A stretch of DNA of 64,000 nucleotides from Leucoraja ocellata (lineage: Eukaryota). This document shows, in pieces, positions 966-62,129 of this stretch. The stretch spans positions 124,001 through 188,000 of the forward strand of contig JAWMAR010001858.1 of the NCBI GenBank assembly GCA_036785375.1. The letters are read 5' to 3'. The position numbers were made by a program, and so were the translations under genes. The first letter of the stretch is position 1. Each line of letters starts with the position of its first letter. The notes beneath the pieces are model-generated. The model was not told where the DNA came from, made no database searches, and saw nothing but the letters and a program-made list of their open reading frames with translations.

Positions 966-2438
966 TATTGAAGGGACAAGGGCTGCATGGAAATACCTTG
1001 GAACGATAGACAATTAAGCCTAACATCTGTGGCAGGAAAGTTACTAGAAAGGATTCTGAGAGATAAGACCTACATGCATTTGAAGACAGTGGTTGCTTGA
1101 CAGTTTTGCACATTGGTGATTGTGTCTCATGAATTTGATTGTGTTTTTTGAAGTAACCAAAAAGGTTGATGAGGGCAGGGCTTTTGACATAGTCTATATG
1201 GACCTGCAATGCCTTTGATAAGGTTCCACATAATAGGCTACTCTGGAAGGTTAGATTGCATGGAATCCAGGAAGAGTTAGCTAACAGGACATCGAATTGG
1301 CTACATGGAAAGAAGCAGAGGGTGATTGTAGTAGTGTTCAAGAAGGAGTCTGAAGAAGGGTTTCGGCCCAAAACGTCGCCTATTTTCTTCGCTCCATAGA
1401 TGCTGCTGCACCCGCTGAGTTTCTCCAGCAATTTTGTGTACCGGTGATGGTAGTAGGTTGTTTTTCAGATTGGACGCCTGTGTCAAGATGTGTGCCTCAG
1501 GGATTGGTGCTGGGCCCATTGCTGTTTGTGGTTTATGTCAGCAAATTGGATGACAATGTAGATGGCTTGATTAGTATGTTGGCAGATGATACTAATGTAG
1601 GTGGTATTGTAGATAGCGAAGATGGTTATCAAGCAAGATCTTGATCAGCTGTGTGAGTGGGGTAAGGAATGGCTAATGGAGTTTCATTCAGATGGTGCAT
1701 TTTTGGAATCGAACAAGTTCAGGACCTTCACAGAGAACAGGGTAGATCTAGGCGTGCAGAGATATAGTTCCCTGAAAGAGGCGCCGCAGGTAGATAGGGT
1801 AGCAAAGACGACTTTTGGCACATTGGCCTTCATCAGACTGGGAATTGAGTATAGAAGTTGGGATGTTCTGTTACAGTTGTACAAGATGTCGGTGAGGCTT
1901 CACTTGGAGTATTACGTTCAATTTAGGTCACCCTGCACGAAGAAAGATACCATTAAACTGGAAACGGTGCAAGAGGTATTACGAGGATGGGTGCCAGTAC
2001 TCAAGGGTCTTAGCTATAAGGAGACATTGGGCAGGCTAAGACTTTATTCCTTGGACCACATGAAGTTGAGGTATGATCTTATGGAGATATATAAAAGCAT
2101 GAATGGAATAAATGGTGTGTATTCCAGGATAGGGGAATCAAGAACTATAGGGAACTACCATAAGTTTAAGGTGACAGAGGCGAGATTTAATAGGAGCCTA
2201 CAATAACGGAGCAACTTTTTCGCAAAGAGAGTGGGATGTATAAGGAATGAATTGCCAGAGGAAGCAGGAACAATAACCATATTTAAAGACATTTGGACAA
2301 CTACATGGATAGAAAGGATTTAGAGGGATATGGGCCAAATGAAGGTAAATGGAACAAACTGTGATGAGGCATCTTGGTCGGCATGGACAAGTTGGGCCGA
2401 AGGGCCAGATTTTTTCTTGCATGACTATATGTCTCTAA
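966..2438 (+). mobile_element. Decayed CR1/HER1-type LINE, RT and 3' region, interrupted by a Penelope unit
   Basis: Motifs VPQGLVLGPLLF, LADDT, VRLHLEYYVQF and a CR1 3'UTR; several frameshifts. Confidence 0.9.
1335..1442 (+). mobile_element. Short Penelope-derived hammerhead unit inserted in CR1
   Basis: CTGAAGAAGGGTTTCGGCCC-AAAACGTC core at 1350 (G12 mutated to A). Flanked by ggtgat[t/g]gtagtag at 1321-1334 and 1443-1456. Confidence 0.85.
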
Positions 2439-4338
2439 CAGGCTGTCTAGAACAGTTAGCTCTCCCACCAAGATGGACCCACCGACATGCTTACCACCTA
2501 AGGATGTCTCAGCTGGAGAGGAATTTAAGCTCTTCGGCAACCCACATAAATACTTTCTGTACTCGTAGCTACCCACAGCTTTCTATGCCTGCTTGCGTGC
2601 TGAGCACTACCTCCAACTAAACCCCACAAGCTGTTTTAGGCTTTATCACTGCAGTCACATCTAATACGACCCCCTCAGCCCTCACCCCATATAGGAGATA
2701 TCTGCAGAGAAGGAATATAGTGCATCCGTGGACATGACCTGCAGTGTGGTGCTTTAGTGAGCAGGTGTTCTTTAAAGACTGCAGCCCTGATGTCAATTAG
2801 TGTGGTAATGAGGTAGTGCCTATGTGGAATTGCCTGACAACTCCAAGTACCAGTTCAGATGCTGGCACTGCAAGGACTAGCCATAAGCACCATTTTCACA
2901 TGAGAAAACACTGGCACTAATAGGCTGTAATAAGGCCAGAGGACCAGAGAGGCTAATGTGTCAGCTCTCTGCAAGGCACATTCGCATATCAGTTTTGCTA
3001 CAAACAGTTCAGATGAAGACCGTGTTAGTAGAATGTGTTGGAAGACTGCACATGGAAATGTTGTCCAGGTTGCAAGATCAACACAAAGGCACTGGAGTGA
3101 CTCAGCTGGTCATGCAGCAGAAAAAGGACGGGTAACGTTTGGAACATTATCATCACATGTTCCGAGGTACAGTGACTTTTTTTGGAACCTATCTCCACCC
3201 ATCCATTTTCTCTAGAGATTCTGCCTGACCTGCTGAGTTACACCAGCATTTTGTGTCCATCTTTGGTATAAACCTGCATCTGCAGTTCCTTCCTACATAT
3301 TTTGTGTGCTTTCAAGGACAAACAAGAAATATTTGGGGAATTAATCTCTAACCTATGGCAGGACTTTCTAAGGAATCAGAGGCGCACCCATTCCCATTGG
3401 GAACTGGTTGACACCTCAGTGACATTTGCACTCCCACAGTTGAAGGAGAAGATTTATGCTCATACTGAGACATAGATCGAGACTGGTCAATGTGTGTGAG
3501 CCACAGTTCAATCAATCTTCTCCTATCAGCAACCCACTTGTGGTCACCCTGAAGTAGGCCGCTGTTGTCAGGCACGGGAACGACCAATCTGATGCACATT
3601 TCTTCCCATCAAGGCGCAGAGAGCTGCCATTACATAACCAGAAAAAGACACAAAGTGATGGAGTAACTCAGCGTCCCGAGATAGTTGAATAGATTTGTGC
3701 CTTTTTTTTAAAAAGCAGCATCTGCAGTTCCTTTTTTCTGTATTACAGAACCAAAGGCAGAGGTAGCGATGGTGTGACCTTTATTACACCACATGAGAGT
3801 GCCCTTTATATACCTGATCCCTAAGGAGTCATGCAGATGTGCAATGCTTTCTCAGATTGCCAGCATGTTTGCTGTGGTTGTTGGTTCTCTGCTGTGCCTT
3901 CATAGATATACCACCGGCACTGAACGCATACTGATGCCCTTCAACCATTGCGGTCTGGAGCAGTGTGTAGGCTTCCGTCAGGGTCATCAACAAACAAGCC
4001 GCTGAAATGGAACAACGTTCCACCGTTCCGGCTGCCTCCAGAGCAGGAACACCACGGAGGGTGCTAGCAAAGGAACACCAAGCATAAACGCCGACCAATT
4101 GTTAGCTTCATTGCACTTTAATGATCTGAAAATTAATGTTCACTTAACTTTAACCGTGGGGCCGCCAGCAGCAGGCCTGCCTCACCCACCCTAGAGGTGA
4201 GGAGCCCGGTCTCGAGAGGGAAGCCACCAAACCCGGCCCCTGCTCATACCGGAGGACTGGAGAGGAGGGTGGAGAGAGTCAAGATGGCTGCGACGTCACC
4301 AGGCGCAAAGAACAGGAGTCAGTAAGAGGAAGTGGGAC

Positions 4339-4428
4339 CTGAAGAAGGGTCTCAATCCGAAACGTCACCCATTCCTTCTCTCCACAGATGCTGCCTGTCC
4401 CGCTGAGTTACTCATTTTGTGTCTATCT
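4339..4428 (+). mobile_element. Short Penelope-derived hammerhead unit (older subfamily)
   Basis: CTGAAGAAGGGTCTCAATCCGAAACGTCacccattcc...gatgctgcctgtcccgctgagttact. Confidence 0.8.
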
Positions 4429-4654
4429 TGGTTTCTTACCTTCCGTTGAATCTGAATGTCGGCTTCGGGAGGCCTCCCCTCTCTGGGCACAAAGGCTGAA
4501 CGGTTGTGACACAAGGAGCAGACCGATATGAAGATCCAGACTGAGGCAACAACTGGAGGCCCTGCAGTAGCCTGGGGCTCAACTGGATTTAGCTCCGTCA
4601 CAAGAGACCAACTGCACAGACCAGACATGGTCTGCAGTAGGACAGAGTGGTGAA

Positions 4655-4832
4655 ACATAGAAAAATAAATGCAGGAGTAGGCCATTCGGCCCTTTGAGCC
4701 AGCACCGGCATTCAATATGATCATGGCTGATCAACCAAAATTAGTACCCCATTCCTGCTTTCTCCCCATATCCCATGATTCCGTTAGCCCCAAGAGCTGC
4801 ATCTAACTCTCTTGAAAACATCCAGCAAATTG
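4655..4832 (-). mobile_element. CR1/HER1 LINE 3' end fragment
   Basis: Reverse complement of the CR1 3'UTR (gaatggcctactcctgc...tttctatgttt tail). Confidence 0.8.
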
Positions 4833-5068
4833 GAGCAGTAATGGAGGACACCTACAGATTTGCTCCGCCAGGCTGACCCAGCAACACCGCCACCTGGACA
4901 TCGGGCCTTTATGGCCAGTTGCACTTAAAGCAATTTGGACTTTGAAAATGGCGACAAAACCTGGCGACTTTTGTATATTGCGTCAGTGGACTATTTCTAT
5001 ATACCTCATGCTTAATCTACAGTAATATTTAATACAGTAATATTTTACTGAACTGAAAGCAAACTGCA

Positions 5069-6240
5069 CCTGGACTTTCAGAAAACATTTGATAAGGTCC
5101 CACATAGGAGATTAGTGGGCAGAATTAGGGCACATGGTATTGGGGGTAGAGTGCTGACATGGATAGAGAAGTGGTTGGCTGACAGGAAACAAAGAGTAGG
5201 GATTAACGGGTCCCTTTCAGAATGGCAGGCAGTGACTAGTGGGGTACCGCAAGGCTCGGTGCTGGGGCCGCAGCTATTTACAATATACATCAATGATTTG
5301 GATGAAGGGATTCAAAGTAACATTAGCAAATTTGTAGATGACACAAAGCTGGGTGGCAGTGTGAACTGTGAGGAGGATGCTATGAGAATGCAGGGTGACT
5401 TGGACAGGTTGGGGGAGTGGGCAGATGCATGGCAGATGAAGTTTAATGCAGATAAATGTGAGGTTATCCACTTTGGTAGCAAAAACACGAAGGCAGATTA
5501 CTATCTAAATGGCGTCAAGTTGGGAAAAGGGGAAGTACAATGGGATCTGGGGGTCCTTGTACATCTACGGAAGTAAGCATGCAGGTACAGCAGGCAGTGA
5601 AGAAAGCGAAAGACATATTGGCCTTTATAACAAGAGGAGTCGAATATAGGAGCAAAAGGGTCCTTCTGCAGTTGTACAGAGCCCTAGTGAGACCACACCT
5701 GGAGTATTGTGTGCAGTTTTGGTCCGCTAATTTGAGGAAGTACATTCTTGATATTGAGGGTGTGCAGCGTAGGTTTACAAGGTAATTCCCGGGATGGCGG
5801 GATTGTCATATGCTGAGAGAATGTAGCAGCTGGGCTTGTACATTCTGAAGTTTAGAAGGATGAGAGGGTATCTCATTGAAACATATAAGATTGTTAAGGG
5901 TTTGGACACGCAAGAGGCAGGAAACATGTTGGGGGAGTCCAGAACCAGGGGCCACAGTTTAAGAATAAGGAGTAAGCCATTTAGAATGGAGACGAGGAAA
6001 CACTTTTTCTCACAGAGAGTGGTGAGTCTGTGGAATTCTCTGCCTCAGAGGGCAGTGGAGGCAGGTTCTCTGGATGTTTTCAAGAGAGAGCTAGATAGGG
6101 CTCTTAAACATAGCGGAGTCAAGGGTTATGGGGAGAAGGCAGGAACGGGGTACGGATTGGAGATGATCCGCCATGATCACATTGAATGGCCGTGCTGGCT
6201 CGAAGGCCCGAATGGCCTACCCTGCACCTATTGTCTATTG
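5069..6240 (+). mobile_element. 5'-truncated young CR1/HER1 LINE (RT domain to 3' tail)
   Basis: [39 protein letters not shown]; ends in the ctattgtctattg tail. Near-identical to the copy at about 57260-58265. Confidence 0.95.
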
Positions 6241-6501
6241 GAAGATGTGACGATAAAATGCCATTTAACTTTTTTGTCTAATCAGGAGTAATCAATGGCC
6301 TCCATAATGCTGTGGTCTCAGCATGCTGAGATATTTTCCAATCTGGAGGAATGCAAGGATTCTAAAGTTTGGAGTAACAATGACCCCAACCACTTTGTGG
6401 AGACCCTTCCAAGGATGGATGCATCGTGCAGCTGTGTCTCCACAGAGTCAAATTTCTGTCTCCACTAATTTACTCTCTGGATATGAATGCAAGCCCTTAC
6501 T

Positions 6502-7005
6502 CTCAAGAGAGTCAAGAGTCAATTTAATTGTCATTTGGACCCCTTGAGGTCCAAACGAAATGCCGTTTCTGCAGCCATACATTACAAACAAATAGACCCC
6601 AGACACAACATAAAGAGTCCCGCGGCCATTCCAAGCCGCGCGGGGCTGTGATGTTAGGCCCCGCTCCAGGAGCTCTTCGACCCCGCAACTCGGGCGGGAG
6701 AAGTCGCCGTTGCAGGAGCCCTGAAAAGCGGTCTCCCTCCAGGGACCCGCGGGCTCCCGATGCCGCCGTCCGCAGACCCGCAGTTGCAGCCTCCGAATCA
6801 GCAGCAGCAGCAGCAGCAGCGCTCCACCACCGCTCCACCTGCTCTGGACTCGGCCAGCTCCGCGACGGTGAGGTGAGTCGGCACCAGAGTCCCCGGTCTT
6901 CTTCTGTTGGAGGCCGCTCCTCATTGCAGCCCCAACGACAACGGAGACCCGACAAGAAAAGGTCGGGTCTCCCGTGCAGGGAGAGATTTAAAAAGTTATA
7001 CCTCC
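6502..7005 (-). mobile_element. GC-rich non-autonomous element with a Rex1/Babar-like 3' tail
   Basis: Reverse complement ends ...aaacggcatttcgtttggacctc...caaatgacaattaaattgactcttgactc (poly-A-like signal plus short repeat tail). CpG-rich body with a (CAG)n tract; architecture similar to 58362-59215. Confidence 0.6.
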
Positions 7006-7054
7006 AGCTCATGCAGTAGAAAGAGTAGAACCATCACCAAGGCACCGATGACAA

Positions 7055-7295
7055 AGAGGGCGTTTAGTCAGAGGGTAGTGAATCTGTAGAATTCATTGTC
7101 ACACATGGCTGTGGAGACCTAGATAATGGATATTGTTAAGGCGGAGATTGACAGATTCTTGATTAGTATGGGTGTCAGGGGATATGGGGCAAATGAGGAG
7201 AATGGGGTTGAGAGGGAAAGATAGATCAGCCATGATTGAATAGCAGACTAGACCTGATGGGCTGAATGGCCTAATTCAGCTGTTAGAACCTATGA
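7055..7295 (+). mobile_element. CR1 LINE 3' end fragment
   Basis: tttagtcagagggtagtgaatctg...agatagatcagccatgattgaat...gggctgaatggcctaatt. Confidence 0.8.
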
Positions 7296-11750: not shown

Positions 11751-11921
11751 ATCACATTTGGGTATTACCTGCCAAAACAATCAACCTTTCCTGATCCCTT
11801 CTATGTGCATCTGGTTTGATGGATAATAGCACCCCAACACCCCCCCCCCCCCCCCCCCCCCCAGTTTCTGGAGACTCTCATTAGGCTAAATATTAAAACA
11901 TGCATTTTAACTGCTCTCTTA

Positions 11922-14407: not shown

Positions 14408-14692
14408 CATGGGTGATGTTTCTGGTCGGGACTCTTCTTCAGACTTCAACCACTAGAGCTGCTACCTCACTGTGCCAAAGACCCTGGTTCAATCCTGACA
14501 TCGGGTGCCATCTGTGTGGAGTTCGCCCATTCTCCCTCTGACCATGTAGGTTTCCTCCTGTTCGAACAAGGGTCCCGACCCGAAATGTCACCCATCCTTT
14601 AACTCCAGAGAAGCTGCCTGATCATCTGAGTTACTGCAGCACTTTGTGTCTACCTTTGGTATATACCTGCATCTGCTGTTCCTTCATGCACA
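14408..14692. mobile_element. Degenerate inverted Penelope hammerhead pair separated by a V-SINE fragment
   Basis: Minus-strand core ending at about 14445, SINE fragment at about 14452-14560, and plus-strand aagggtcccgacccgaaatgtcaccc with tail. Confidence 0.65.
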
Positions 14693-15230
14693 CTCGTAGA
14701 ATCATATAATGGTTGTAACACTGAATGAGGCCATTCAACATGTGAAGTCTACAAAGATTGTGAGGAAGGCAAATGTAAGTGGGCAGCAAGGTGGTCTAAT
14801 TCTTTTCAGAGTATGAGCTAGCTGACCATGCATGCGGCCACGACTCCGCAGTGCGCGCAGATGGGAACTGGTTGCAAAATACGTTTCACAAAACATGGGG
14901 GGGGATGGGGGGTGGATCGTCCCCCACCTCTGAAAACATGTAGGGGACCCGTCCCCCCCCCAGGATTTCCACCCCCTGACAGGATGCACCTAAGCTTCAT
15001 TTTGAGTGTCATAGCAAAAAGTCTGAATACTTATGTAAATGCGATATTTCAGTTATTTCTTTTTAATTACTTTGCAAGAATTTCTAAACAACTGTTTTTG
15101 CTTCTTCAGTCTGGGGTATTGTATGTAGATTGATGGGAAAAAAAAGAATTTAATCCATTTTAAAATAAGGCTGTAACGTAACAAAATGTGGAAAAAGTGA
15201 AGGGGTCTGAATACTTATTAATGCACTGTA

Positions 15231-15360
15231 TCTGAAGAAGGACCTCGACCCGAAACGTCACCCATTCCTTCTCTTCAGAGATGCTGCCTGATCCACTGAG
15301 TTACTCCAGCTTTTTTGTGTCTCTCTTTGGTTTAAACCAGCATCTGCATTTCCTTCCTGC
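15231..15360 (+). mobile_element. Penelope hammerhead unit abutting the Tc1 right end
   Basis: CTGAAGAAGGACCTCGACCCGAAACGTCacccattcc...ccagcatctgcatttccttcct. Confidence 0.8.
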
Positions 15361-15544
15361 GCATTTTATTTATCTGAAGCAAGGTCATCCACTGCAAATG
15401 GCTTTGCATAAACATTTCTAGATTGCAGAACCAAATCCTCAACATATTCCAAATTCCTGCATATCGAAGGAACACATTTTCAACTATTTAGCCTGAATCA
15501 TGCACTTTTATCAGAAGAAAAGCAAAACCACAAATCCAACATAT

Positions 15545-15942: not shown

Positions 15943-16159
15943 AAATTATTCATGGAATGAATTATTGAATCATTTTATTATATGAGTATTAGCTCAGAAT
16001 ACTTTGCTCAATGTGAAAACAGGATATTATACTGGAGCAGTTTGCAATGTATCCAAAGGCAGATAACGACAAATTACCTTTCAAATCGTCACAGGTTGAG
16101 TTACGTTGTTTATTAGCTAAATTGATTGTGGTATTGAGGGCAAGAAAATAATTGGGCCA

Positions 16160-16349
16160 GTGTTTAAGAGGGAACTGCAGATGCTGGAGAATCGAAGGTT
16201 ACACAGAAAAGCTGGAGAAACTCAGCGGGTGCAGCAGCATCTATGGAGCGAAGGAAATAGGCAACGTTTCGGGCCGAAACGTTGCCTATTTCCTTCGCTC
16301 CATAGATGCTGCTGCACCCGCTGAGTTTCTCCAGCTTTTCTGTGTAACC
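16160..16349. mobile_element. Penelope-derived perfect palindrome (76-bp arms) plus a 37-nt tail
   Basis: Arms 16197-16272 and 16274-16349 are exact reverse complements. TSD aaataattgggcca at 16146-16159 and 16350-16363. Confidence 0.93.
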
Positions 16350-16542: not shown

Positions 16543-16645
16543 TAGAAAGGATGCTGGTTTACAGCGAAGATAGACGCAAAGTGCTGGAGTAACTCAGCGG
16601 GTCAGGCAGCATCTCTGGAGAAAAAAGATGGGTGACGTTTTGGTC
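16543..16645 (-). mobile_element. Penelope-derived unit, antisense
   Basis: gatgctggttt...ctggagtaactcagcgggtcaggcagcatctc...gggtgacgttt. TSD tgttttcctg[c/t]gtt at 16529-16542 and 16646-16659. Confidence 0.8.
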
Positions 16646-17042
16646 TGTTTTCCTGTGTTACAGGTGCTCTACAGTGGTAAGACGTTAGTTTCACTGCCTG
16701 TCTACACCAGCGCTGTGTGACCAGCAGAGGCAAACAAAGTGTTTTTTTTAAGTTTTAAGCTTTGATCACTTGCAATCATCATTTTAACTGCGTCCCAGGG
16801 TTTCCTACGCACAGCTTTCTTTGGCTCAAATCATCTGAAATTTGTTTAGGACTAAGTTGCTTTTGCAGCTTCCTGTAATGTACTCGACCAACAAGCTGCA
16901 CACTCATTCCATCTGCCAGGAAATGTCAGCAGTGACACCTGGTGGCAGGGCCGGCAGAGTGGTGCCCCAACAATGGCTCCTCCACAGCCCCATCACCTAC
17001 TTCCCTTCCCAACCCACAAGAGAAGGCGCGGGACCACAGTGT

Positions 17043-17151
17043 GTAGGAAGGAACTGCAGATGCTGGTTTACATCAAAGCACAAATGCTGGAGTAACTCAG
17101 CTGGTCGAGAAATGCTGCCTGATCCGCTGAGTTACTCCAGCATTTTGCTTT
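17043..17151. mobile_element. Small inverted Penelope-derived unit
   Basis: aaatgctggagtaactcagc ... gctgagttactccagcattt inverted pair. TSD gggaccacagtgt at 17030-17042 and 17152-17164. Confidence 0.8.
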
Positions 17152-21149: not shown

Positions 21150-22450
21150 ATGTTCATAAGGTCATATATGTCCTTGTACATAAGTCACAAAGCCAACATC
21201 CAAGTGCAGCAAGCATTAAGAAAGGAAAATGGTAGGATTTTAATACAAGAGTAAAGATATCTAACTGTATTTAGTGTGTACAGTGTTGGTCTCTATATCT
21301 AACAATGTATATGTTTGCCATTGAGTTCAATGAGGTTCAAATGACAACAAATAAATTGTATTGTATTGTATTGTATTGAGGGGGTTCAGTGACCAATAAA
21401 CTGGTTACAGGTTTGTCATATGGGGAAAGATGGAGTTTATAGACCTCTGTACTATAGAATTTAGACAAATAAAGAGAGATCTTGTTGAAACCTACCAAAT
21501 TCATACAGGCCACAACAGCCTGGATGCTGCAAAGACATTTTATACACCTCTATAAGAGGTGTATAAAATCTCCTAGCAATCTCCTATGCTCCAAGGAATT
21601 ACTTTTTAGCCTGCCCAACCTCAGTCTGAAGAAGGGTTTCGGCCCGAAACGTTGCCTATTTCCTTCGCTCCATAGATGCTGCTGCACCCGCTGAGTTTCT
21701 CCAGCTTTTCTGTGTAACCCTCACCCTGTTACTCACTCCCTTGAGTCCTGGCAATACCATTGTAAATCTTTGCTGCATGCTTTCCACCTTCATAGCATAT
21801 TTCCTTTATCAGCATGACCAGAATAAGTGCAGCCTGAACAATGTCTTATACAACTGCAACATAACATCTCAACTTCCCTGCCCTGAATGATGAAGGCCAG
21901 CTTGCAAAAGTCTACTTCACCACCCTGTCCACCTGTGACACCACTTTCAGGGAAATAGGTGCTTGTTATTCCAAGGTCCCTCTGATCATAACACACCTCA
22001 TAACCCCATTGTTTACCGTGAAACTCCTACCCTGCTTCAACACTTTGCACTTATCTGATTTAAACTCCATTTACTACATTTGGCCAGCTTGATAAAGACC
22101 CCTCCTGACAACCATCATCATGGTCTACAAAATCACTTATTTCAGTGTCATCTGCAAAAGTACTAACCAGACCTTGTACATCCTCATCCAAATTGTTGAT
22201 AAAGGTGATAAAAAATAATGGGCTGAGCCCTGAGGCAGCTGTTAGCCACAGGCTCCACTCTGAAAGAAAAACTTTCTTCATTACCCTCTGCTTCCTATCA
22301 TGAGCCCAATTAGCTCTCCCGGGATACCGTGCAATCCCATCTTTCAAAGCAGCTTACCATGCAGAACCTTAAAGTCCATATAGACTATGTTTACCACCTG
22401 CCCTAATCGACCTTTTTGATTACATCTTCAAAAAACTCAAATCAATTTTG
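21150..22450. mobile_element. Decayed CR1 fragments (+ at about 21150-21520, - at about 21530-22450)
   Basis: The minus frame contains LSPLFFITFINNLDEDVQGLVSTFADDTEI. Confidence 0.75.
21622..21719 (+). mobile_element. Young Penelope hammerhead unit with intact core
   Basis: cagtCTGAAGAAGGGTTTCGGCCCGAAACGTTgcctatttcc...tgtgtaacc. Confidence 0.9.
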
Positions 22451-25299: not shown

Positions 25300-25836
25300 G
25301 GCGGCACGGTGGCGCAATAGTAGAGTTGCTGCTTTACTGTGTTCAATCCTGACTATGGGTGCTGTTTGTATGAAGTTTGTACATTCTCTTCGTGACCTGC
25401 ATGGGTTTTCTCCGGGATCACCGGTTTCTCCCCACACTCCAAAGACGTACAGGTTTGTAGGTTAAACGTGTAGGAAGGAACTGAAGACGCTGGTTTACAC
25501 CAAAGATGGACACAAAATGCTGGAGTAACTCAGCGGGATAAGTAGCATCTCTGGAAAGAAGGATTTTGGGTCGAAACCCTTCTTCAGACTGAATCTCGGA
25601 CGGATCTCGACCCATAACGTCACCCATTCCTTCTCTCCAGAGATGCTGTCTGTCCGAGTTTAGCATTTTGTGTCCATTTTCAGATTTGTAGGTTAATTGG
25701 CTTGGTATAATTGTAAATTGTGTCTAGTGTGTGTAGAATAGCGTTAGTGTGCGGGGATTGGTGGTTGGTGTGGACTAGGTGAGCCGAAGGGCCTGTTTTT
25801 GCGCTGTATTATTAAACTAAACTAAACTAAACTAAA
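25300..25836 (+). mobile_element. HE1-type V-SINE interrupted by an inverted Penelope unit (25466-25680)
   Basis: ggcggcacggtggcgc start and (aaact)n tail. The insert is flanked by cag[g/a]tttgtaggttaa at 25450-25465 and 25681-25696. Confidence 0.88.
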
Positions 25837-28379: not shown

Positions 28380-29742
28380 CAGTATTTACTTTAATGTCAT
28401 TTTAGCTGAATACTTACATACACAGATGAAACGAAAAAATTGTTTCTCAATCAGTTCCCGTCACTGCAGTTAATAAAAACAGAATAAATACATAGAGCTT
28501 TAAAAATTAAAATTACCATATCTAAAATAGTCCTAATAATTGAAATAAAAACAGGCATTCAGACCGAACAGTGGCTTTGCATTGACAGGTGCCGAGCTGT
28601 CAAAGTATGGGCGAGGTTAGATGTGTTGGTGTATGATATATGGGGAGGGGACACAGTTCGTTAACCAGTCTTATTGCCTGTGAAAAGAAGCTGTGTAGCA
28701 TCCTGCTGGTTTTGCAGCTGGTGCTCCTGTACCTCTTCCCAGATGGCAGAATGGAGAAGATGTGGTGTGATGGATGATAGGGTTCCTTGATAATGGAGAT
28801 AGCTCTGCTGTTGCTCCGCTTCTGATAGATCTCCAACAGGAAAGGGAGTGGGGCACCAATGATCCTACTGGCTGTCTTCACTATCCTGTTAAGTTGGTTT
28901 TGCTCATAAGCCTTGCAGCTCCCAAACCAGGAAGTGATGCCTCCCCCCATATCTGCCTTCCGCAAAGACCGCTCCCTCCATAACTCCCTTGTCAATTCTT
29001 CCCTTCCCTCTCGTACCACCCCCTCCCCGGGCACTTTCCCTTGCAACCGCAAGAGATGCAACACTTGCCCCTTTACCTCCCCCCTCGACTCCATTCAAGG
29101 ACCCAAGCAATTGTTCCAGGTGTGACAGAGGTTTACCTGCATCTCTTCCAACCTCATCTATTGCGTCCACTGCTCTAGATGTCAGCAGATCTATATCGGT
29201 GAGACCAAGCGGAGGTTGGGCGATCGTTTCGCCGAACACCTCCGCTCGGTCCGCAATAACCAAGCTGACCTCCCGGTGGCTCAGCACTTCAACTCCCCCT
29301 CCCACTCCGTCTCCGACCTCTCTGTCCTGGGTCTCCTCCATGGCCACAGCGAGCAGCACCGGAAATTGGAGGAACAGCACCACATATTCCGTTTGGGGAG
29401 TCTGCATCCTGGGGGCATGAACATCGAATTCTCCCAATTTTGTTAGTCCTTGCTGTCTCCTCCCCTTCCTCAGTCCCCCTGCTGTCTCCTCCCATCCCCC
29501 AACCTTCGGGCTCCTCCTCCTTTTTCCTTTCTTGTCCCCGCCCACCCCCGCCCCCGATCAGTCTGAAGAAGGGTTGCGGCCCGAAACGTTGCCTATTTCC
29601 TTCGCTCCATAGATGCTGCTGCACCCGCTGAGTTTCTCCAGCTTTTTTGTGTAACCCAGGAAGTGATGCCGTAGGTCAATATACTCTCGATGGTGCCCCT
29701 GTAGAAGGTCCTTAGATGAACAGTAGGGAGACCTGCTTTTCT
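28380..29742 (-). mobile_element. Rex1/Babar LINE 3' part, split by a Penelope insertion
   Basis: FYRGTIESILTYGITSW | FGSCKAYEQ...ILPSGKRYRS is continuous across the insertion. Confidence 0.85.
28942..29655 (+). mobile_element. 5'-truncated Neptune-type Penelope-like retroelement: Cys-rich linker, GIY-YIG endonuclease, and 3' repeat with hammerhead
   Basis: CNRKRCNTC...(one stop)...NLIYCVHCSRCQQIYIGETKRRLGDRFAEH...HFNS...RKLEEQHHIFRLGSLHPGGMN, stop at 29444-29446. Hammerhead core at 29563. Perfect 15-bp TSD CCAGGAAGTGATGCC at 28927-28941 and 29656-29670. Confidence 0.95.
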
Positions 29743-38672: not shown

Positions 38673-40009
38673 TACGATGCTCGTTCAATAGATAGGTAGG
38701 TTTTCAGGGGATCAATGGATATGGGATTAATATAGAAAATTGCCACAGAGATAAAAGATCAGCCTTTTCTACCAATGGCAGAGAAAGGCTGAATGGCCTT
38801 TTCCTGCTTCAGCTCGTTAGGTTTCTTAGGAATTTCTTCTCAATGCCACAAGCCAGGTTTAAATCCATTTTTGCCACTTCCCCAACAGCTGCCAGCTGTT
38901 AACAAAGATGGGTCCATTCCTGACCATTGAACATTGGTCTTTTCCCAAAGGCAGAGTTGTGTGGTGATTAACTCACCAGACAAGCCACCAGAGTTCAGCA
39001 CCATTGATCTAAAAACATCCATTTTCTCCAGTGTTGCTGCCTGACCCGCTGAGTTATTCCAGAACTTTGTGTCTGTGCCTTCTGTGGTTGGTCATTTTTA
39101 TTGCTATTTCCAGTGAATGGACGAATAGCAGGTGACGATGAGAGCATGCACAAAATGAGACCTTTTAGTCAATTAAATGAATGAAGTGAAATTGTTATGA
39201 GCTGCATGTGATCCTCCTCACCCAGATTTCCTCCATACACTACACCTGGGGAATAGTTAAAGATCAAAGTACAAAATGAAGAAAACTTGTTTCTCTGATA
39301 TTTTGCACACATCAGTGTGGTTTAAACATTCCATTCTTAGCCCCAGTGGGCCTTTGGCTACATGGTTCATCTAATTCATATTCTCGTGTACTTTGGGTAG
39401 TATGGTAACTTTTCAGGCAAGTTTTTCAGCCGATTTCTCGTCAATTGTTTCAAAATAAATCAGATTTACACATAATTTTCAGTTATTTAGTTATTTACAC
39501 ACGTTTTTGTATGCAAATCCAAACATAGGACAAAGGCACAACCTAATCTCAGAGCGATAGTGGTTCATTTACTGGAAATCATTAATCAGAGCTTTTTATT
39601 ACTTGCCATCACATTGTTAGGTAGCCCTGACCTACCTATCTTATTCTAAGTTTGGACGTTAGAGGAAAATAACTTACCTTTTGTATATTTACATGTGTGC
39701 AGAAAAATGCAGAGCAGCAATGTCCGATTATAATTGCCACTATGGAGCCTCATGAGACTTGAGTGGGGATCAGAAATGAAGTTACTTTGGTCATTGAAGT
39801 CACTCTAAGACTCTATGACTATTCCATTTCCATATTTCCTTACCATAGCTTCACCAGCCATCTCACAGCTTCAGCGATCCGCTGCACACTGGCAATTTGA
39901 AGCATCTTCGCATCGGAAACAGAATCCATTCATTCTGGCTCGGATGAATGCAATTGTGCTCTAACATATGGAGATTGCAGACTTGTCAGCGCTCATCTGA
40001 ATTCTGTAT

Positions 40010-41120
40010 TTAGAGCATAGAACAACAGTACAGTACAAGAGCGGGCCCTTCAGCCCACAATGTCCACATCAAACATGATGCCAAGTCAAACTCTTCTTCT
40101 TTCGTGTGGCGTGCACAGCCTAAAGTTGTTGGACAACTTGTTCTATTTGATGTGTTCAAGAAGGAACTGCAGATGCTGGAAGATCAAAGGTACACAAAAA
40201 TGCTGGAGAAACTCAGCGGGTGCAGCAGCATCTATGGAGCGAAGGAAATAGGCGACGTTTCGGGCCGAAACCCTTCTTCAGACTGAAAGGGGGTGGCGGG
40301 GAGAAGGAAGGAAAAAGGAGGAGGAGGAGCCCGAGGGCTGGGGGATGGGAGGAGACAGCCCGAGGGCTAAGGAAGGGGAGGAGACAGCAAGGGCTAACAA
40401 AATTGGGAGAATTCAATGTTCAAGCCCGCAGGCTGCAGACTCCCCAAGCTCAAGAAGTTCTTTCAGACTGAAGAAGGGTTTCGGCCCGAAACGTCACCTA
40501 TTTCCTTCGCTCCATAGATGCTGCTGCACCCGCTGAGTTTCTCCAGCATTTTTGTGTACCTTTGTTCTATTTGATCTTCCGTTTGTGCACGTCGAATTGA
40601 TTGCATTAGTCAAAACAGGGCAGAAGGTTGCAATCTTCCACCCCCCAAGTCAGTTTGATCTCATCTGTCTATATTTGATCCACAACCTTCCATACCTTGC
40701 ACTTTTATGTGGCTATCTAAACCCTCTAAAATGCCACCATCGGATCTGCCTCCAGCACCACCCATGACAATGCATTCCAGGCCCCATCACACGTTTAAAA
40801 AAACTTACCCCGCACATCTCTAATAAACTTCTCCACCCCCCCCCCCCCCCCCCCCCCTCACCTTATAACTATGCCCTCTAGTATTGGGCATTTACACCTT
40901 GTGAAAACGTTTCTGACTATCTACACAATCTATGCACACTATGATGTTATGTACTTCCATCAAGTCTCTTTATAACCTCCAATGTTCCAGAAAAAACAAT
41001 CCAAGTTTATCCAATCTCACCTTGTAGCTGAAACCCTCTAATCCAGGTAGCATTCTGGAACGCATCCTCTGCACCCTCTCCAAAGCCTCCACGTCCTTCC
41101 TATAATGGGGCAATCACAAG
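40010..41120 (-). mobile_element. Decayed CR1 3' region interrupted by a Penelope insertion
   Basis: agaacaacagtacagtac...ggcccttcagcccacaatg; tctgcaccctctccaaagcctccac. Confidence 0.7.
40152..40561. mobile_element. Inverted Penelope structure: antisense tail, hammerhead and ORF end, followed by a sense hammerhead unit
   Basis: Minus core at 40275-40281 and plus core at 40468-40474. The antisense part is homologous to 29395-29655. TSD ttgttctatttgat at 40138-40151 and 40562-40575. Confidence 0.92.
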
Positions 41121-41496
41121 TGCACACTGTAATTTTCTTCCAAATATCACTGTGCTCCATCATAACATTTTATAAACTTCAAAAATATAAGGCAGCCAAT
41201 GTATTGTCATGTATGGACATTTAAAATATTATACAGAAATGAAGGATAAATTACCATTTCAAAAAAGCTCCTCTCTCAATGATTGGCATGAACATTCAGA
41301 GTTCGACAATTGCCAAAGCTACCATTTACCTTTGATAGAATTGTCAATAGAGTTTAATATGACATTGTATCATGTAATTTACTCTGTTAGGACTGTAGAT
41401 ATATAGTGAAAATGAATATGCTCATATTAAAATGGCATTCTATCGCATGGTACATATTGCAATTAGGCTATTGGACAGGTGGCTGACAAAAATATG

Positions 41497-41581
41497 GTTT
41501 TGGCCCGAAACGTTGCCTATTTCCTTCGCTCCATAGATGCTGCTGCACCCGCTGAGTTTCTCCAGCTTTTTTGTGTAACCA
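41497..41581 (+). mobile_element. Penelope unit truncated within hammerhead stem II
   Basis: ggcccgaaacgttgcctatttcc...tgtgtaacc. Perfect TSD ctgacaaaaatatg at 41483-41496 and 41582-41595. Confidence 0.9.
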
Positions 41582-47445: not shown

Positions 47446-47769
47446 GGAAAACATGAAGGTAGTCACAAAATGCTGGAGTAAGTCAGCAGGTGAGGCAGCA
47501 TCTCTGGAGAGAAGGAATGGGCGACAATAGACAATAGGTGCAGGAGTAGACCATTCGGCCCTTCGAGCCATCACCGCCATTCACTGTGATCAAGGCTGAT
47601 CATGGAATGGGCGACGTTTCAGGTCGAGACCCTTCTTCAGTCTGAAGAAGGGTCTCGACCCGAAACGTTGCCCATTTGTTCTCTCCTGATATGCTGCCTC
47701 ACCCACTGAGTTACTCCAGCATTTTGTGTCTACCTTCGATTTAAACCAACATCTGCAGTTCTTTCCTAC
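47446..47769. mobile_element. Head-to-head Penelope hammerhead palindrome with a nested CR1 3' tail
   Basis: ...gacccttcttcag T ctgaagaagggtc... centred on 47641. CR1 tail at 47526-47603 flanked by ggaatgggcgac; outer repeat acaaaggaact at 47435-47445 and 47770-47780. Confidence 0.85.
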
Positions 47770-48265
47770 ACAAAGGAACTTGCAATCCAGGAGAGTTCCC
47801 TGTGCCTGCATAGTTCATGGCCCACCTGATCTTTGTCAACTGTAGTCCAAACTCCAAGTTGCAGTGGGCATTTAAAGATTTGACCCTATGAATACAACCT
47901 TCCCCATTTCTGGACCTATGCACTGAACTGTGTAACATTCCAAGAAAATCAGATGTCATTTTCCAAAGTTATCCAACAGAGTAATCAACTAACGTTTGCC
48001 ACTGTTTAACAGCTGTAGATCAGTTACAGAGAATCACTATATTTAGGGAACTGCAGTATCTAAGACACCGCTAAAATCATTGGGAGATACAGCACAGACC
48101 ATGTCCATGCAAACCATCCAGCAACTAATTAATTTACTTACATCTCACCTTCACTCGTTTTACTCTTCCCACATTCACATGAATGCCCACCACCCGCCCC
48201 CCCCCCCCCCCCCTCACTGCCACATACGTGCACATAAACACACATTCACACATACACATGCAACC

Positions 48266-55499: not shown

Positions 55500-58265
55500 G
55501 GAAAGCTTGAAAATGGACAACAGAATAAGATCAGGGCCAATTGCGAGGGGGGAAGTGAATACGGAGGTCAAAGTGCTGTACATGAATGCGCGAAGTATAA
55601 GGAATAAAGTGGACGAGCTTGAAGCTCAGTTAAAAACTGGCAAGTATGATGTTGTGGGAATTACTGAGACATGGCTGCAAGAGGGCCAGGGCTGGGAACT
55701 GAATATTCAAGGGTATACCTCCTATCGAAAAGACAGACAGGTAGGCAGAGAGGGTGGGATGAGGAATGAAATTGGTGAGGAATGAAATTCAGTCCCTTGC
55801 AAGGGGTGACATTGAAACAGGAGATGTGGAGTCAGTATGGATAGAACTAAGGAATTGTAAGGGTAAAAAGACCCTAATGGAACTAACCTACAGGCCCCCA
55901 AACAGTAGCCTGGACATAGGGCGGAAGTTGAATCAGGAGTTAAAATTGGCATGTAGCAAAAGTAATGCAGTGGTTGTTATGGGAGATTTCAACATGCAGG
56001 TAGACTGGGAAAATCAAGTTGGTACTGGACCCCAAGAAAGGGACTTTGTAGTGTGCCTTTGTGATGGATTCTTTGAACAGCTTGTATTGGAGCCTACCAG
56101 GGGGAAGGCAATTCTGGATTTAGTGTTATGTAATCATCCAAATTTGATAAAGGACCTCGAGGTTAATGAGCCATTAGGAGGCAGTGACCAATACATGATC
56201 AGGTTTCATCTACAATTGGAGAGGGAGAAGAGTAGATCGGAGGTGTCAGTGTTGCAGTTGAATAAAGGGGACTATGGGGCCATGAGGGTGGAACTGGCTA
56301 AAGTTGACTGGAAAGATACACAAAAGATGCCAGGTGTTTCTAGGAATAATACTGAAGGTGCAGGATCAGTTCATTCCTAGGAGGAGGAAAGATTCCAAGG
56401 GGAGAAAGGGACGACCATGGCTGACAAGGGACGTCAGGGACAGTATAAAAATTAAAGCGAAGAAGTACAACATAGCAAAGATGAGCGGGAAGCAAGAGGA
56501 TTGGGTAATGTTTAAAGAATAACAGAAGATAACCAAAAAGACAATACGGGGAAAAAAGTTGAGGTACGAAGGTAAGCTAGCCAAGAATATAAAGCAGGAT
56601 AGGAAAGCTTCTTTAGGTATGTGAAGAGGAAAAAATGAGTTAAGACCAAAGTTGGACCCTTGAAGACCGAAAAAGGTGAATTTATTATGGGGAACAAGGA
56701 AATGGCAGATGAGTTGAACAGGTACTTTGGATCTGTCTTCACTAAGGAGGACACAAACAATCTTCCTGATATAGTAGTGGCCAGAGGATCTGGGGTGACA
56801 GAGGAACTGAAGGAAATCCACATTAGGCAGGAAATGGTGTTGGATAGACTGATGGGACTGAAGGCTGATAAATCCCCAGGGCCTGATGGTCTGCATCCCA
56901 GGGTACTTAAGGAAGTGGCTCTAGAAATCGTGGATGCATTGGTGATAATTTTCTAATGTTCTATAGACTCAGGATCAGTTCCTGTGGATTGGAGGGTAGC
57001 TATGTTATCCCACTTTTTAAAGAAAGGGGGAATAGAGAAAACGAAGAATTATAGACCAGTTAGCCTGACATCGGTGGTGGGGAAGATGCTGGAGTCAATT
57101 ATAAAAGATGAGATAGCCGCACATTTGGATAGCAGTAACAGGATCGGCCCGAGTCAGCATGGATTTACGAAGGGGAAATCATGCTAGACTAATCTTCTGG
57201 AATTTTTGAAGATGTAACTAGGAAAATGGACAAGGGAGAGCCAGTGGATGTAGTGTGCCTGGACTTTAAGAAAGTCCAGGTACACTAGGTCCGACATAGG
57301 AGATTAGTGGGAAAAATTAAGGCACATGGTATTGGGGGTAGAGTGCTGACATGGATATAGAAGTGGTTGGCAGAGTAGGGATTAACCGGTCCCTTTCAGA
57401 ATGCAGGCAGTGACTAGTGGGGTACCGCAAGGATCGGTGCTGGGACCGCAGCTATTTACAATATACATCAATGATTTGGATGAAGGGATTCAAAGTAACA
57501 TTAGCAAATTTGCACGACACAAAGCTGGGTGGCAGTGTTAACTGTGAGGAGGATGCTATGAGAATGCAGGGTGACTTGGACAGGTTGGGGGAGTGAGCAG
57601 ATGCATGGCAGATGAAGTTTAATGCGGATAAATGTGAGGTTATCCACTTTGGTAGCAAAAACAAGAAGGCAGATTACTATCTAAATGGCGTCAAGTTGGG
57701 AAAAGGGGAAGTACAACGGGATCTAGGGGTCCTTGTACATCAGACTATGAAAGTAAGCATGCAGGTACAGCAGGCAGTGAAGAAAGCGAATGTCATAGAA
57801 TAGAATAGAATAGAATAGAATAGAATAGAATAGAATAGAATAGAATAGAATAGAATAGAATAGAATTACCTTTATTGTCATTCAGACCTTATTCATTGAA
57901 ACATATAAGATTGTTAAGGGCTTGGACACGCTAGAGGCAGGAAACATGTTCCCGATGTTGGGGGAGTCCAGAACCAGGGGCCACAGTTTAAGAATAAGGA
58001 GTAAGCAATTTAGAACGGAGACGAGGAAACACTTTATCTCACAGAGAGTGGTGAGTCTCTGCCTCAGAGGGCGGTGGAGGCAGGTTCTCTGGATGCTTTC
58101 AAGAGAGAGCTAGATAGGGCTCTTAAAAATAGAGTCAGGGAATATGGGGAGAAGGCGGGAATGGGGTACTGATTGGGGATGATCAGCCATGATCACATTG
58201 AATGGTGGTGCTGGCTCGAAGGGCCAAATGGCCTACTCCTGCACCTATTGTCTATTGTCTATTGA
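55500..58265 (+). mobile_element. Long CR1/HER1 LINE ORF2 (APE endonuclease plus RT), frameshifted, with an internal deletion replaced by (TAGAA)n
   Basis: YMNARSIRNK, GITETWL, YRPP, MGDFN, ILDLVL, GSD (APE); [31 protein letters not shown] (RT); 3' tail tattgtctattg. Confidence 0.95.
57796..57865. repeat. (TAGAA)14 microsatellite
   Basis: 14 perfect copies followed by ttacctttattgtcatt (antisense aataaa), i.e. the tail of an inserted element. Confidence 0.95.
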
Positions 58266-59215: not shown

Positions 59216-60679
59216 TGTTAGCTTAAACTGGAAACTCTGCATCTAATCACAGACCCTTGGAATGTTAAAATGACCTGGACACCATTTGATACCATGAACT
59301 TTTCTTGATCGAGAAAAAAGCCAAGGTTAATTTCCAATGAGGAGATTATGCATACAAGCTCTGTAATCATGTGACATTATAATCCCTGTTTACAAGCAAA
59401 CAGGAAAGGCTTAGCAGCCACACCAAGAAAACGTTACTTCTAAATGCATGCATCAGCACGGGAGTGTAGCTGTTGAATAACATGATTCTTGTCATTAATG
59501 TCTGTGCCTTACTTATAACCCTCACCATTTCTACACGGAGAGTATGGGTGGAGATGTCAGGTGGTGACTCAACTCACTCAATACCATTCCCAGTACAGCC
59601 TAGTTAATTCACATCTTTGCCTTACTGAAGGTCACATCCTACAGCTCGATATACCACAAATTACAGGAATACCAATGTGCACCAAAGAAAATATCGCATT
59701 TTCTGAGGCAGCCATCTAAACCCGCAAAGACATTGTGCTAAGACTGAAGGACTGTGTTAAATGTCCCAGGTTCAAATATTAATGCTCGTCATCCTGACAC
59801 TTTCTAACTGTGGCAGTGCTTAAAGCCAGAGATAGAAGGGAATTTCTGATGTGGCAGGGACTAGCGCAACTTTACTTGTCACGGAATCCAAAAATAATTG
59901 TATATCCAAGAAGGAAAAACAAAAAAGAGTTTGGGGGAATGGTTGCATTAAACGCTTTCCCCTTTATCATGTATCTATACACTATGGATGGCTCAATTGT
60001 AATCATGCCTTTCCTCTGACTGGATAGCACGCAACAAAAGCTTTTCACCATACCTCGGTACACGTGACACTAAACTAAACTAAATTAAATATGAACTTCA
60101 AGCAGATAGTATAGATTATTCAAGTGATGGAAAGTAAAGTTTGATTTTATAGTGAAAAAAGCAAAGTGTTGATGTTAAATGCAAGTATAAGCACGATAAT
60201 GTCAAGAGTAGTAGAAACAAATTATAAACCTGTATATGTAATGTGTAAGAAGGAAATGCAGATGCTAGTTTCAACCGAAGATAGACACAAAAAGCTGGAG
60301 GCATCTGGTGAGGACCTGGCAGTGCTAGTAAAGAGGTCGGTGTAGCGGTCGATGATGACGCTGACCAACAGATGAGGATGGACAAGCGGAAGTGAGGACG
60401 CCGCTGCCGAGGGAAAGAATAAATGAGGACCCGAATGGAGGCACTGCCTTGAGGGGGAGGGAAGAGCATTAAGGTCCCAGTGTGGGGGAACCGCAGTGAG
60501 AGGGGGGGAGGAACAATGCACATTGGAGGACCCAAAATGGGGGACCGCCGTGAGAGAGGGGAGGCAGAGCAGAGGGGAACCTGGCATGGGGGGGGGGAGA
60601 AATTGTAAAGGGCCCTTTATGGTTGACTATTTGCATACCTTGGTGACTTGTCACATGTGACAATAAAGTATTCAATCAA

Positions 60680-61105
60680 TCAAGAATCTATTAATCTCCA
60701 TTGACCTGGCCTCTACAGCCATCTGTGGCAATTAATTCCACAGATTCACCATCCTCTGACTAAAGAAATTCCTCCTCATCACCTTTCTAAAGGTACATCC
60801 TTTTATTCGGAGGGTATGGCCTCTGATCCAAGACTCTTCCACTAGTGGAAACATCGTCTCCACATCCACACTATCCAGACCTTTCACTCTTCGATAAGTT
60901 TCAATGAGGTCCCTCCCCCCCCCTCATCCTTCGAAACTCCAGCGAGTACAGGCCCATTGCCGACAAATGCTCATCTTATGTTGACCCAATCATTCCTGGG
61001 ATAATTCTCATAAACCTCCTCTGGACCTCCTCCAACATCAGTACATCCTTCCTCAGATATGGGGCCCAAAACTGTTCACAGTACTCCAATTGTGGTCTGA
61101 CCAGC
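60680..61105 (-). mobile_element. CR1 LINE 3' fragment
   Basis: Same family as 43695-44262 (cacagattcaccatcctctgactaaagaaattcc...cagtactccaattgtggtctgacc). Confidence 0.82.
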
Positions 61106-61429
61106 GCTTCAGTATTCCATCTCAAACAACAGTGTTGATCGATGGTGGGGCAGCTGAATCAGAATTAGCTCAACGTGGCACAGAATCCCCATACAAAATG
61201 TGTACCATAGAGACACAAATACAGAACTGAAATACAGAAATACAGAGCTCATGGGATGCTGCGAGTATCTGACCCAGTGAGTTGACAGACTGTAAAATAG
61301 TATCTCCCCATTTAGGTATTCCTAAGGAGCTGGAGTGCAGTATACGACCTCTGGGAACAACGCAGGGTCAGATGCTCAGGACCAACAACCAGCAACACTG
61401 CATCAGCTGAATTTACTTAACTGCCCAGC

Positions 61430-61765
61430 ACTGTGGTAAAGCTGCTGGAACAGTACAATGAGAACTGGAAGAAGTGAGTTCAAATTCCACCACGGCAAAA
61501 GGGATTTTGAGTGCAACTAATTCAATAAAACCTGAAAATAAAAAAGATAATATCATTCATAGCAATTATGAAACTATCTGACTGTTGCAAAAACCACCTG
61601 GTTCACTAAAGTCAAGGGGACTCAATAATGTCCCCTTATTCCTAACCGTAGCAATACGTTGACTGCTATATATGACAGAGCAGGTCAATAAACCCAGGGG
61701 CTACTGGGGGGTGGGTAACACATGCTGGTCTACTCAGCATTGCCCACATCTTCTGAATACATTTT
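61430..61765 (+). mobile_element. Ancient tRNA-derived SINE (decayed); a related fragment lies at about 19440-19530
   Basis: gagttcaaattccaccacggc (B box), aataaaacctg, aaaaaccacctggttcactaa, tgcccacatc. Family recognised from memory only. Confidence 0.55.
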
Positions 61766-62020
61766 TAACATTTATTTGATTACCAAATGGGTAAGTAAAC
61801 CTCCTGACTTCCCCATGCATTCAGTTAACATATTGTGTTTGTGGCTCGTAGTTCTGCACTGTAGTAAAATTGCTGATAGCCCATCTCGATTCTTCCAGTA
61901 TCTCAAGGATCTACGTATCTGGATGTCTCCTCCCCCCCCCCCCCCCCCCCCCCTACAGAAGTAATCCCAGACTGTTGACGTATGCATTTCCTCTCAGATC
62001 TGCTATCTACTAGTGGATGG

Positions 62021-62129
62021 TACTGCAGATGCTGGTTTAAACCGAAGATAGACAACAGGTCTCGACACGAAACATCACTACTCTGCTGAGATGCTGCCTG
62101 TCCCGCTGTGTTACTCGAGTTTTTTATGT
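62021..62129. mobile_element. Degenerate inverted Penelope-derived unit
   Basis: actgcagatgctggttt (antisense tail) then ggtctcgacacgaaacatc...gatgctgcctgtcccgctg. Flanking repeat ctatctact[a/t]gt[g/a]gatgg at 62003-62020 and 62130-62147. Confidence 0.72.

Follow-up and report, generated by a model that had tools for sequence, protein, structure and literature searches.

Hammerhead-bearing repeats in the window and in the genome

The window analyzed here, 64,000 nucleotides of the Leucoraja ocellata genome (GCA_036785375.1, contig JAWMAR010001858.1, positions 124,001 to 188,000), contains 20 loci, with 25 arms, of a short repeat that carries a hammerhead ribozyme motif (Table 1), along with fragments of LINEs (long interspersed nuclear elements) as well as a very large coding exon. 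The short repeats are the terminal repeat, made up of a minimal hammerhead and a tail, of an autonomous, recently active Penelope-like element (PLE) that resides in the same genome.

Positions in the repeat are numbered from the C of CTGA (C3), which is 0, and the predicted cut lies between +27 and +28. Copies were detected with a profile built on natural copies, with reversed sequence as the control, in the window and in a 1.214-Mb sample comprising the window and eleven arbitrary blocks of the genome; counts of exact cores refer to 3.44 Gb of genome. No match was obtained in the reversed window or the reversed sample, and the 1.214 Mb yielded 365 loci with 470 arms covering 46,245 bases, a density of ~300 loci per Mb. 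Extrapolated to the whole genome, this amounts to roughly one million loci. The exact 23-nt core of the young copies has 34,833 matches genome-wide (reversed control, 0). About 3.8% of the sampled sequence is thus one ~140-bp unit, which annotation could mislabel as a short interspersed nuclear element (SINE). Many loci are duplicated with common flanks (L206 and L218; pairs in L291-L320; L091-L095), a sign of segmental duplication or of haplotypes left uncollapsed, by which the copy counts are inflated.

An earlier note, made from the letters of the window, had described a recurrent hammerhead motif, and its positions were reproduced at 1350, 4339, 15232, 21626, 29563, 40468, and 47642 on the plus strand and, differing by only a few bases, at 14442, 40281, 47640, and about 25587 on the minus strand. 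Its statement that copies have their own target site duplications (TSDs) also holds, with TSDs of 12-16 bp at 10 of 18 window spans tested, and the young and old subfamilies that it distinguished were both found among the copies. The copies it cited contain the motif, but several have a damaged core or stem: G12 is changed at 1350, stem II is mismatched at 4339 and 15232, and the cleavage triplet is absent from the arm at 25587. Most copies are decayed, the invariant core being retained in 83 of 226 full-core arms. Most lack an open reading frame (ORF), as the note had said; the copies at 28940-29656 and 40152-40447 hold the end of a GIY-YIG ORF.

The autonomous parent element

The copy at 28940-29656 matches thousands of candidate places in the genome at identities of up to 99%, and the whole element was recovered by walking upstream from its homologues. 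Autonomous units are 3,946-3,985 bp long, often lie head to tail, and are ~99.5% identical to each other. A natural intact ORF of 1,233 amino acids encodes a reverse transcriptase (RT), a linker zinc-finger motif, and, at the C terminus, a GIY-YIG domain; its Pfam matches to RVT_1 (E 1.4e-6) and GIY-YIG (E 0.013) are both below the curated cut-offs, and the GIY motif is visible. Hammerhead and tail are present at each unit junction, where the order is ORF stop near -120, pyrimidine-rich spacer, hammerhead, long hairpin, tail, and ATG near +167. The Penelope origin proposed in the earlier note is supported.

The element has the features of an endonuclease-positive PLE, namely a single ORF with RT and C-terminal GIY-YIG, tandem or partial-tandem pseudo-long terminal repeat (pLTR) units, inverted 5' copies, and a 30-40-bp tail on one end. 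At about residue 1100, the ORF contains the motif CxxxxCxxC. A motif resembling a zinc finger, within the linker that joins RT to endonuclease, belongs to Neptune, which shares it with Nematis (PMC8557442; statements on the literature refer to the accessible parts of each source), and this motif, rather than a tree, points to a putative assignment to the Neptune clade.

Near-identical full-length head-to-tail arrays lie at C1:8,660,000-8,675,000 (L201-L203) and on C300, C265, C8, and C1093 (L264-L283). In the first C1 unit, which has an intact ORF, the N-terminal third is long, proline-rich, and repeat-bearing, and its length differs between subfamilies. The spacer at 29445-29561 and its homologues look intron-like, with donor-like bases at the stop codon, a pyrimidine tract, and CAG at -2. 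They resemble D. virilis Penelope in this respect, and no spliced copy or read joint was found. A short upstream ORF of ~14 codons or more, at 29613-29654 and in homologues, begins past an AG of the hairpin that lies 3' of the hammerhead, and its ATG is retained in old and young copies.

Copy ends

Ends were mapped on the first 70 of 100 listed exact-core places, for which upstream sequence was no criterion apart from a required match at -2. The 5' ends fall at -2 (n = 18), -3 (n = 8), -4 (n = 2), -5 (n = 5), and once each at -6, -7, and -12; 35 of the 70 are therefore within -2 to -7, none lies from -13 to -67, and 34 range from -68 to beyond unit length. When one segmental duplicate and two tandem repeats were dropped, 34 of 67 young copies ended within these 6 nt, against 0.65 expected from the background rate (p 4e-50). 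The 3' ends are confined to two sites, +89 to +96 (n = 44) and +127 to +131 (n = 23), with three elsewhere. They match the pair of internal RT starts by which the tail is defined in the anole element Poseidon (PMC11167929).

The block sample, where -2 was not required, agrees with this map: among 67 young arms, 5 are long and 22 start between -5 and 0, and many of the remainder are inverted-pair junctions at +1 to +22. Genome-wide, 6,745 of the 34,833 exact-core matches deviate as early as -3, and the 7 nt most often found upstream are present in 12,280; the remaining matches are a mixture of copies ending at -3 to -8, members of other subfamilies, and copies with mutations. Old subfamilies have their boundary at about -3, with 112 flank-like arms dropping towards background 5' of -3/-4. 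The 5' ends of long copies form a continuum.

The fixed 5' boundary likely marks the 5' end of the RNA that was copied. Self-cleaved RNA was considered as the template and rejected, as only one of the 67 young arms starts at +28, the first base after the predicted cut. Copies retain hammerhead sequence 5' of that cut, which indicates that the template was uncleaved.

Inverted pairs

Among 84 head-to-head pairs, the tail is on exactly one arm in 66, on both in 1, and on neither in 17, some of the last being decayed or cut short. The share with one tail compares with 48% under independence (p 1e-8). Junctions cluster in stem II, in the palindrome around -1, and in the ACGT of stem III. Because the anole element has two internal RT starts and cuts both DNA strands (PMC11167929), we suggest that a pair of cDNAs, each with its own start site and target strand, would anneal via palindromes in and beside the hammerhead to give an inverted pair. 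Self-priming, which has been proposed as the origin of such pairs (PMC3846280), may also apply.

Short and long copies

The commonest 68-nt haplotype is common to 11 long and 10 short copies and the second to 6 long and 3 short, and all five subfamily classes contain both kinds (92 arms pooled). The short copies thus appear to be by-products of the autonomous element. Inserted short copies, having no sequence 3' of the start site, are probably dead ends.

An alternative is a separate non-autonomous family, in which a SINE- or retrozyme-like master of 95-135 nt with its own transcription is mobilized in trans by the Penelope protein, as the earlier note had supposed. We regard such a master behind a large share of the copies as decidedly unlikely. 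The sharp 5' boundary and own TSDs would suit it, and one subfamily is skewed to short copies (18 short versus 7 long pooled, 11 versus 1 in one sample; permutation p 0.024), a skew that a non-autonomous master would also give and that weighs against a by-product origin. ORF-deleted dimers, one of them (L298) with the same junction twice and two (L296 and L314) sharing a junction between different flanks, could be counted in its favor as well. In contrast, the commonest haplotypes are shared with long copies and every subfamily class has long members, so a SINE's own master lineage is not seen beyond the weak skew. With regard to a SINE-type head derived from tRNA, 7SL, or 5S with a Pol III promoter, neither the window nor the pLTR has an Rfam match, and the head is the element's own pLTR. 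A run of T serves as a stop for RNA polymerase III, and the run of 4-6 T at ~+80-86 would end such transcripts before both 3' ends. The ORF-start motif occurs only 3 times in 1.214 Mb against 365 loci. The copies also stop at tail positions and lack the downstream sequence that, by analogy with what the anole protein needed in vitro (PMC11167929), would be required. With haplotypes shared with long copies, an uncleaved template, and ends at the element's own tail positions, a separate ribozyme-plus-tail family is not upheld as the main source.

A retrozyme-like form does exist and is rare. Retrozymes are tandem ORF-less units with a hammerhead each, and among the 470 arms only 27 direct neighbors lie within 300 bp, so the bulk of the family is of another kind; the definition fits only the rare ORF-deleted dimers. 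These hammerhead dimers of 250-400 nt, with varied junctions, occur in L291-L320 (e.g., L298, L296, L314, L295) and L340. As a side reading of their sequence, they may represent retrozyme birth in progress.

Origin of the 5' boundary

An explanation has to accommodate what the copies show: they belong to the autonomous element, their 3' ends lie at two fixed sites, their 5' boundary is sharp, they have TSDs, and there is one tail to an inverted pair. With the parent element as source, we think it fairly probable that about half of the young copies are run-off cDNAs whose synthesis started internally, at +90-95 or at +127-131, and proceeded as far as the 5' end of an uncleaved RNA beginning 2-3 nt before CUGA. 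The boundary would then be a transcription start at the initiator-like TCAGT, and the RNA would mostly be a short promoter-proximal transcript from -3/-2 to ~+260 (end near +235 to +285). Holding a single hammerhead, such a transcript would not be cut. Long and tandem copies would derive from a second RNA pool lacking that 5' end, either read-through multimers or ribozyme-made circles.

The behavior of cDNAs at a second hammerhead was read from 60 top-scoring loci holding the ORF start, 30 of the youngest and 30 of an older subfamily. In the youngest set, 28 reach the upstream hammerhead and all continue past it (22 independent loci). A stop at the boundary was accordingly seen in 0 of 22 independent longer-than-unit loci, compared with 4 of 12 copies that this subfamily made on a first pass (p 0.011), which is evidence against a sequence-dependent stall or cut. 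In the older set (~20 independent loci), 27 of 30 stop at +234 to +285, as L340 also does, and 23 are joined to a second pLTR piece whose start lies anywhere between -134 and +32, in several cases at 0 to -6; one older-subfamily locus pair is joined via an A run. Joined pLTR pieces are expected of an RT that jumps from the 5' end of its template to a free 3' end near +260.

The inference of a short transcript from -3/-2 to ~+260 draws on these stops, on the bases -5 to +1, which fit the initiator consensus, and on CAG at -4 to -2, which is kept across subfamilies though -4 and -3 are unpaired in helix I. The bases at the boundary can also be taken for a 3' splice site or for a palindrome. An internal promoter of initiator/DPE (downstream promoter element) type has been described in the Penelope pLTR (PMC2377424, PMC3846280).

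Two other origins of the boundary have to be weighed. Short copies could be the short end of random 5' truncation, which is the usual published description (PMC8557442, PMC8969392) and fits the continuum of 5' ends in long copies. Given the crowding of half the young ends into 6 nt, this is exceedingly improbable and is refuted for the young family in this sample; the random truncation tail that the earlier note had named as a refutation of its own reading is not borne out. The boundary could also arise by processing rather than transcription: an endonuclease might cut at the 9-bp pseudo-palindrome (-5 to +3), RT might halt at the hammerhead, or, as in D. virilis Penelope, the pyrimidine tract and CAG in front of the hammerhead might serve as a 3' splice site. 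The sequence does contain the palindrome and a pyrimidine tract that ends in the conserved CAG at -2, these palindromes are where fold-back junctions cluster, and the Penelope intron end maps to the 5' end of a 2-bp helix I, a geometry identical to that found here (PMC4209133). We nonetheless consider processing unlikely. The cDNAs that pass the hammerhead a second time were never stopped there, and in 13 of 24 solo short copies examined, the TSD is flush with or overlaps the first bases of the element, so that an upstream exon would have no space. Moreover, two exact splice and back-splice junction patterns have 0 genomic matches (exact patterns miss variants), and no spliced joint is among the read joints listed. 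An HDV-like (hepatitis delta virus-like) reading of the boundary was rejected by eye, as the conserved P3/P1.1 are absent.

A slight G excess 5' of -2 (41 of 100 versus 30 expected, p 0.012) favors a run-off cDNA from an RNA that starts at the boundary, but it is weak and could be mutation in long copies. Several points weigh against such a cDNA. Young copies end most often at G(-2), which lies one base inward of the initiator A(-3). The lack of a second-pass stop also speaks against a plain unit-length mRNA starting at the boundary, which would give full-length copies ending at -2; none are seen, so that a second RNA pool must be assumed. The second-pass comparison itself rests on 12 first-pass copies and on top-identity loci, tandems may also expand at the DNA level, and the query for the older subfamily came from a locus that is itself a mini-tandem. 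In polyA or single-cell RNA reads of related organisms, the element is present with no pile of starts distinguishable from passive copies, and no RNA record is listed as containing the element. Loose ends with unrelated flanks do occur at -2, in 220 contigs of run X15 and in 354 reads of run X21, one of which runs may come from the organism of the window itself; they mirror the genomic boundary and are no evidence of a start site.

It is possible, if doubtful, that the hammerhead sorts two RNA pools. Short capped transcripts with one hammerhead would remain uncut and give rise to 95-135-bp insertions by the hundreds of thousands, with occasional retrozyme dimers, while two-hammerhead transcripts would be cut and circularized into long and tandem copies, and inverted insertions would come from two cDNAs that use the two start sites. 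If so, the genome would preserve a record of where transcription starts, of both RT starts, and of how retrozymes are born.

The hammerhead motif as a ribozyme

A minimal type I hammerhead core (CUGANGA, GAAA, and NUH, with stem II and a palindromic stem III) is present in all subfamilies, and the motif fits the published minimal description, as the earlier note had claimed; by motif it is a predicted ribozyme. Variation between subfamilies affects 0 of 10 core columns versus 6 of 10 following columns (p 0.011), a conservation that could also reflect overlap with the possible promoter. Helix I has 2 bp beside the core, with the third pair mostly A-C, and is shorter than the 4-6 bp looked for; in the D. 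virilis variant it is also 2 bp (PMC4209133).

Another claim for the motif did not stand. Across 226 arms, stem pairing equals the independence expectation at all 14 column pairs, with no common compensatory double change and only one-sided U-A to U-G changes, and what had been taken for stem II pairing kept while the loop varies is a one-sided subfamily change plus CpG decay. Rfam gave no hit at gathering scores in the window and no hammerhead or HDV-like hit up to E 10 in the pLTR. Minimum-energy folds of monomer and dimer are without hammerhead structure, which counts against the proposed part of the ribozyme, although such folds are uninformative for motifs of this kind. The cleavage described for minimal hammerheads is weak and is seen with dimers or in the presence of protein (PMC4209133, PMC11167929), and 1 of 9 Xenopus dimers cut (bioRxiv 10.64898/2026.07.22.740005).

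Other features of the window

Table 1. Copies of the hammerhead-bearing repeat in the window (repeat positions relative to C3)
Feature	Window position	Strand	Remarks
Young copy, -3 to +92	1335..1442	+	~12 nt inverted tail end precedes; G12 mutated; 14-bp TSD at 1321 and 1443
Old head-to-head arms without hammerhead core	3046..3298	.	3046-3140 minus; 3196-3298 plus, with tail
Old copy beginning at hammerhead 5' edge	4338..4430	+	Stem II mismatch; no clear TSD
Old fragment, hammerhead only	14409..14449	-	
Old copy with tail, degraded core	14559..14692	+	
Old copy, hammerhead edge to tail	15229..15362	+	
Young fold-back pair, junction in stem II	16159..16349	.	Minus arm to +130 (tail); plus arm to ~+90; 14-bp TSD
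Old arm beginning in GAAA box	16550..16643	-	14-bp TSD
Old short fold-back pair, tail on one arm	17038..17147	.	13-bp TSD
Young solo copy, -5 to ~+93	21621..21719	+	Hammerhead motif intact at 21626
Old inverted pair, tail on minus arm	25468..25682	.	12-bp TSD
5'-truncated autonomous-type copy	28940..29656	+	GIY-YIG remnant, one stop, ORF end ~29445; pyrimidine-rich spacer; hammerhead 29563; 15-bp TSD
Old coreless fragment	39016..39076	+	
Classic inverted Penelope insertion	40152..40562	.	Minus arm reaches from -170, in the ORF end, to the tail at +129; plus arm begins with the hammerhead edge and reaches +94; 14-16-bp TSD
Young solo copy from +9	41496..41580	+	14-16-bp TSD
Old inverted pair, junction is the palindrome just 5' of CTGA	47455..47773	.	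Plus arm with tail; 12-13-bp TSD
Old tail-only fragment	60242..60302	-	
Old decayed pair, inverted tail piece and forward arm	62010..62135	.	12-bp TSD

The minus arm of the pair at 47455..47773 is split by another repeat at 47527-47603. A further abundant short repeat (66-185, 14454-14562, 15794-15871, 43097-43199, 48715-48806, 50674-50793) often adjoins hammerhead copies.

The very large coding exon, 1,318 codons from stop to stop, is found at 30261-34217 (+). It has Pfam matches to an NWD1-type winged helix and to the NWD2 C-terminal propeller; the frame upstream of it, at 23825-24505 (+), has no Pfam match. The hammerhead repeats around it sit in introns of this NWD2-like host gene.

LINE fragments with APE (apurinic/apyrimidinic endonuclease-type) and RT regions occupy 5052-6291, 11400-14214, 49755-50430, and 55763-58260, with an RVT_1 match for 5052-5573 and near-identical inverted copies at 12139-12593 and 49755-50209. 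A second LINE type, with RVT_1 and ALKBH8_N matches, is found on the minus strand at 53741-54685, 8566-9108, and 28600-28900, and the Penelope copy at 28940 sits inside a fragment of this type.

Comparison with known systems

Much of what the earlier note thought might be new is in print (PMC4209133, bioRxiv 10.64898/2026.07.22.740005), including minimal hammerheads that occur singly and stem from truncated PLEs, the inverted arms and the tails, and retrozymes of pLTR origin, one chondrichthyan being included in the bioRxiv survey. Our literature search, which lay outside Repbase, Dfam, subscription journals, and closed or bioRxiv supplements, found no description of this repeat family or of the fixed 5' boundary with its end statistics, the second-pass absence, and a measured one-tail rule. 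The literature names the origin of PLE tails, inverted arms, and tandems and the role of the hammerhead as open questions (PMC8557442, PMC11167929). With its very young intact element and its very large set of copies, this genome gives quantitative end rules that any mechanism must reproduce: a 5' boundary that is fixed, 3' ends at two sites, a single tail to a pair, and no second-pass stop.

The minimal hammerheads of metazoan PLEs (PMC4209133) are likewise of type I, with an extra base between 9 and 10.1, a G10.1-C11.1 pair, and a palindromic 15.2-16.2. They are mostly single, also occur as opposite-strand pairs, and are tied to truncated PLEs, from which most single ones probably derive. 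The copy number in the skate is ~100-fold above the 4,000-9,000 of coelacanth and Xenopus (search methods differ). Its helix I has the 2 bp by the core of the D. virilis variant; the accessible part of that paper describes no fixed 5' boundary.

Poseidon of Anolis (PMC11167929) is similar in its tandem units, its hammerhead near the ORF start, its two tail-defining RT starts, and uncleaved RNA as the main substrate. In the skate, the ORF starts ~167 nt after C3, beyond both start sites, the linker zinc finger points to Neptune, and pair asymmetry and the 5' boundary were measured on genomic copies only.

Non-LTR retrozymes (PMC7229834; bioRxiv 10.64898/2026.07.22.740005) are also ORF-less, pLTR-derived, and hammerhead-bearing, and the 250-400-nt dimers fit both their definition and the 363-bp mean of one chondrichthyan (bioRxiv 10.64898/2026.07.22.740005). 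The bulk of the skate copies differ in being monomeric or inverted, in having the haplotypes of the autonomous element, and in carrying a minimal rather than a canonical hammerhead.

Penelope elements of Adineta and Drosophila (PMC3846280, PMC2377424, PMC8557442) share the inverted pLTR, the optional 30-40-bp tail on one arm, palindromic junctions, TSDs, and the initiator-like motif. Their solo pLTRs are few and have been ascribed to recombination or deletion, and their palindromes to self-priming, whereas in the skate, solo units with TSDs are the majority product.

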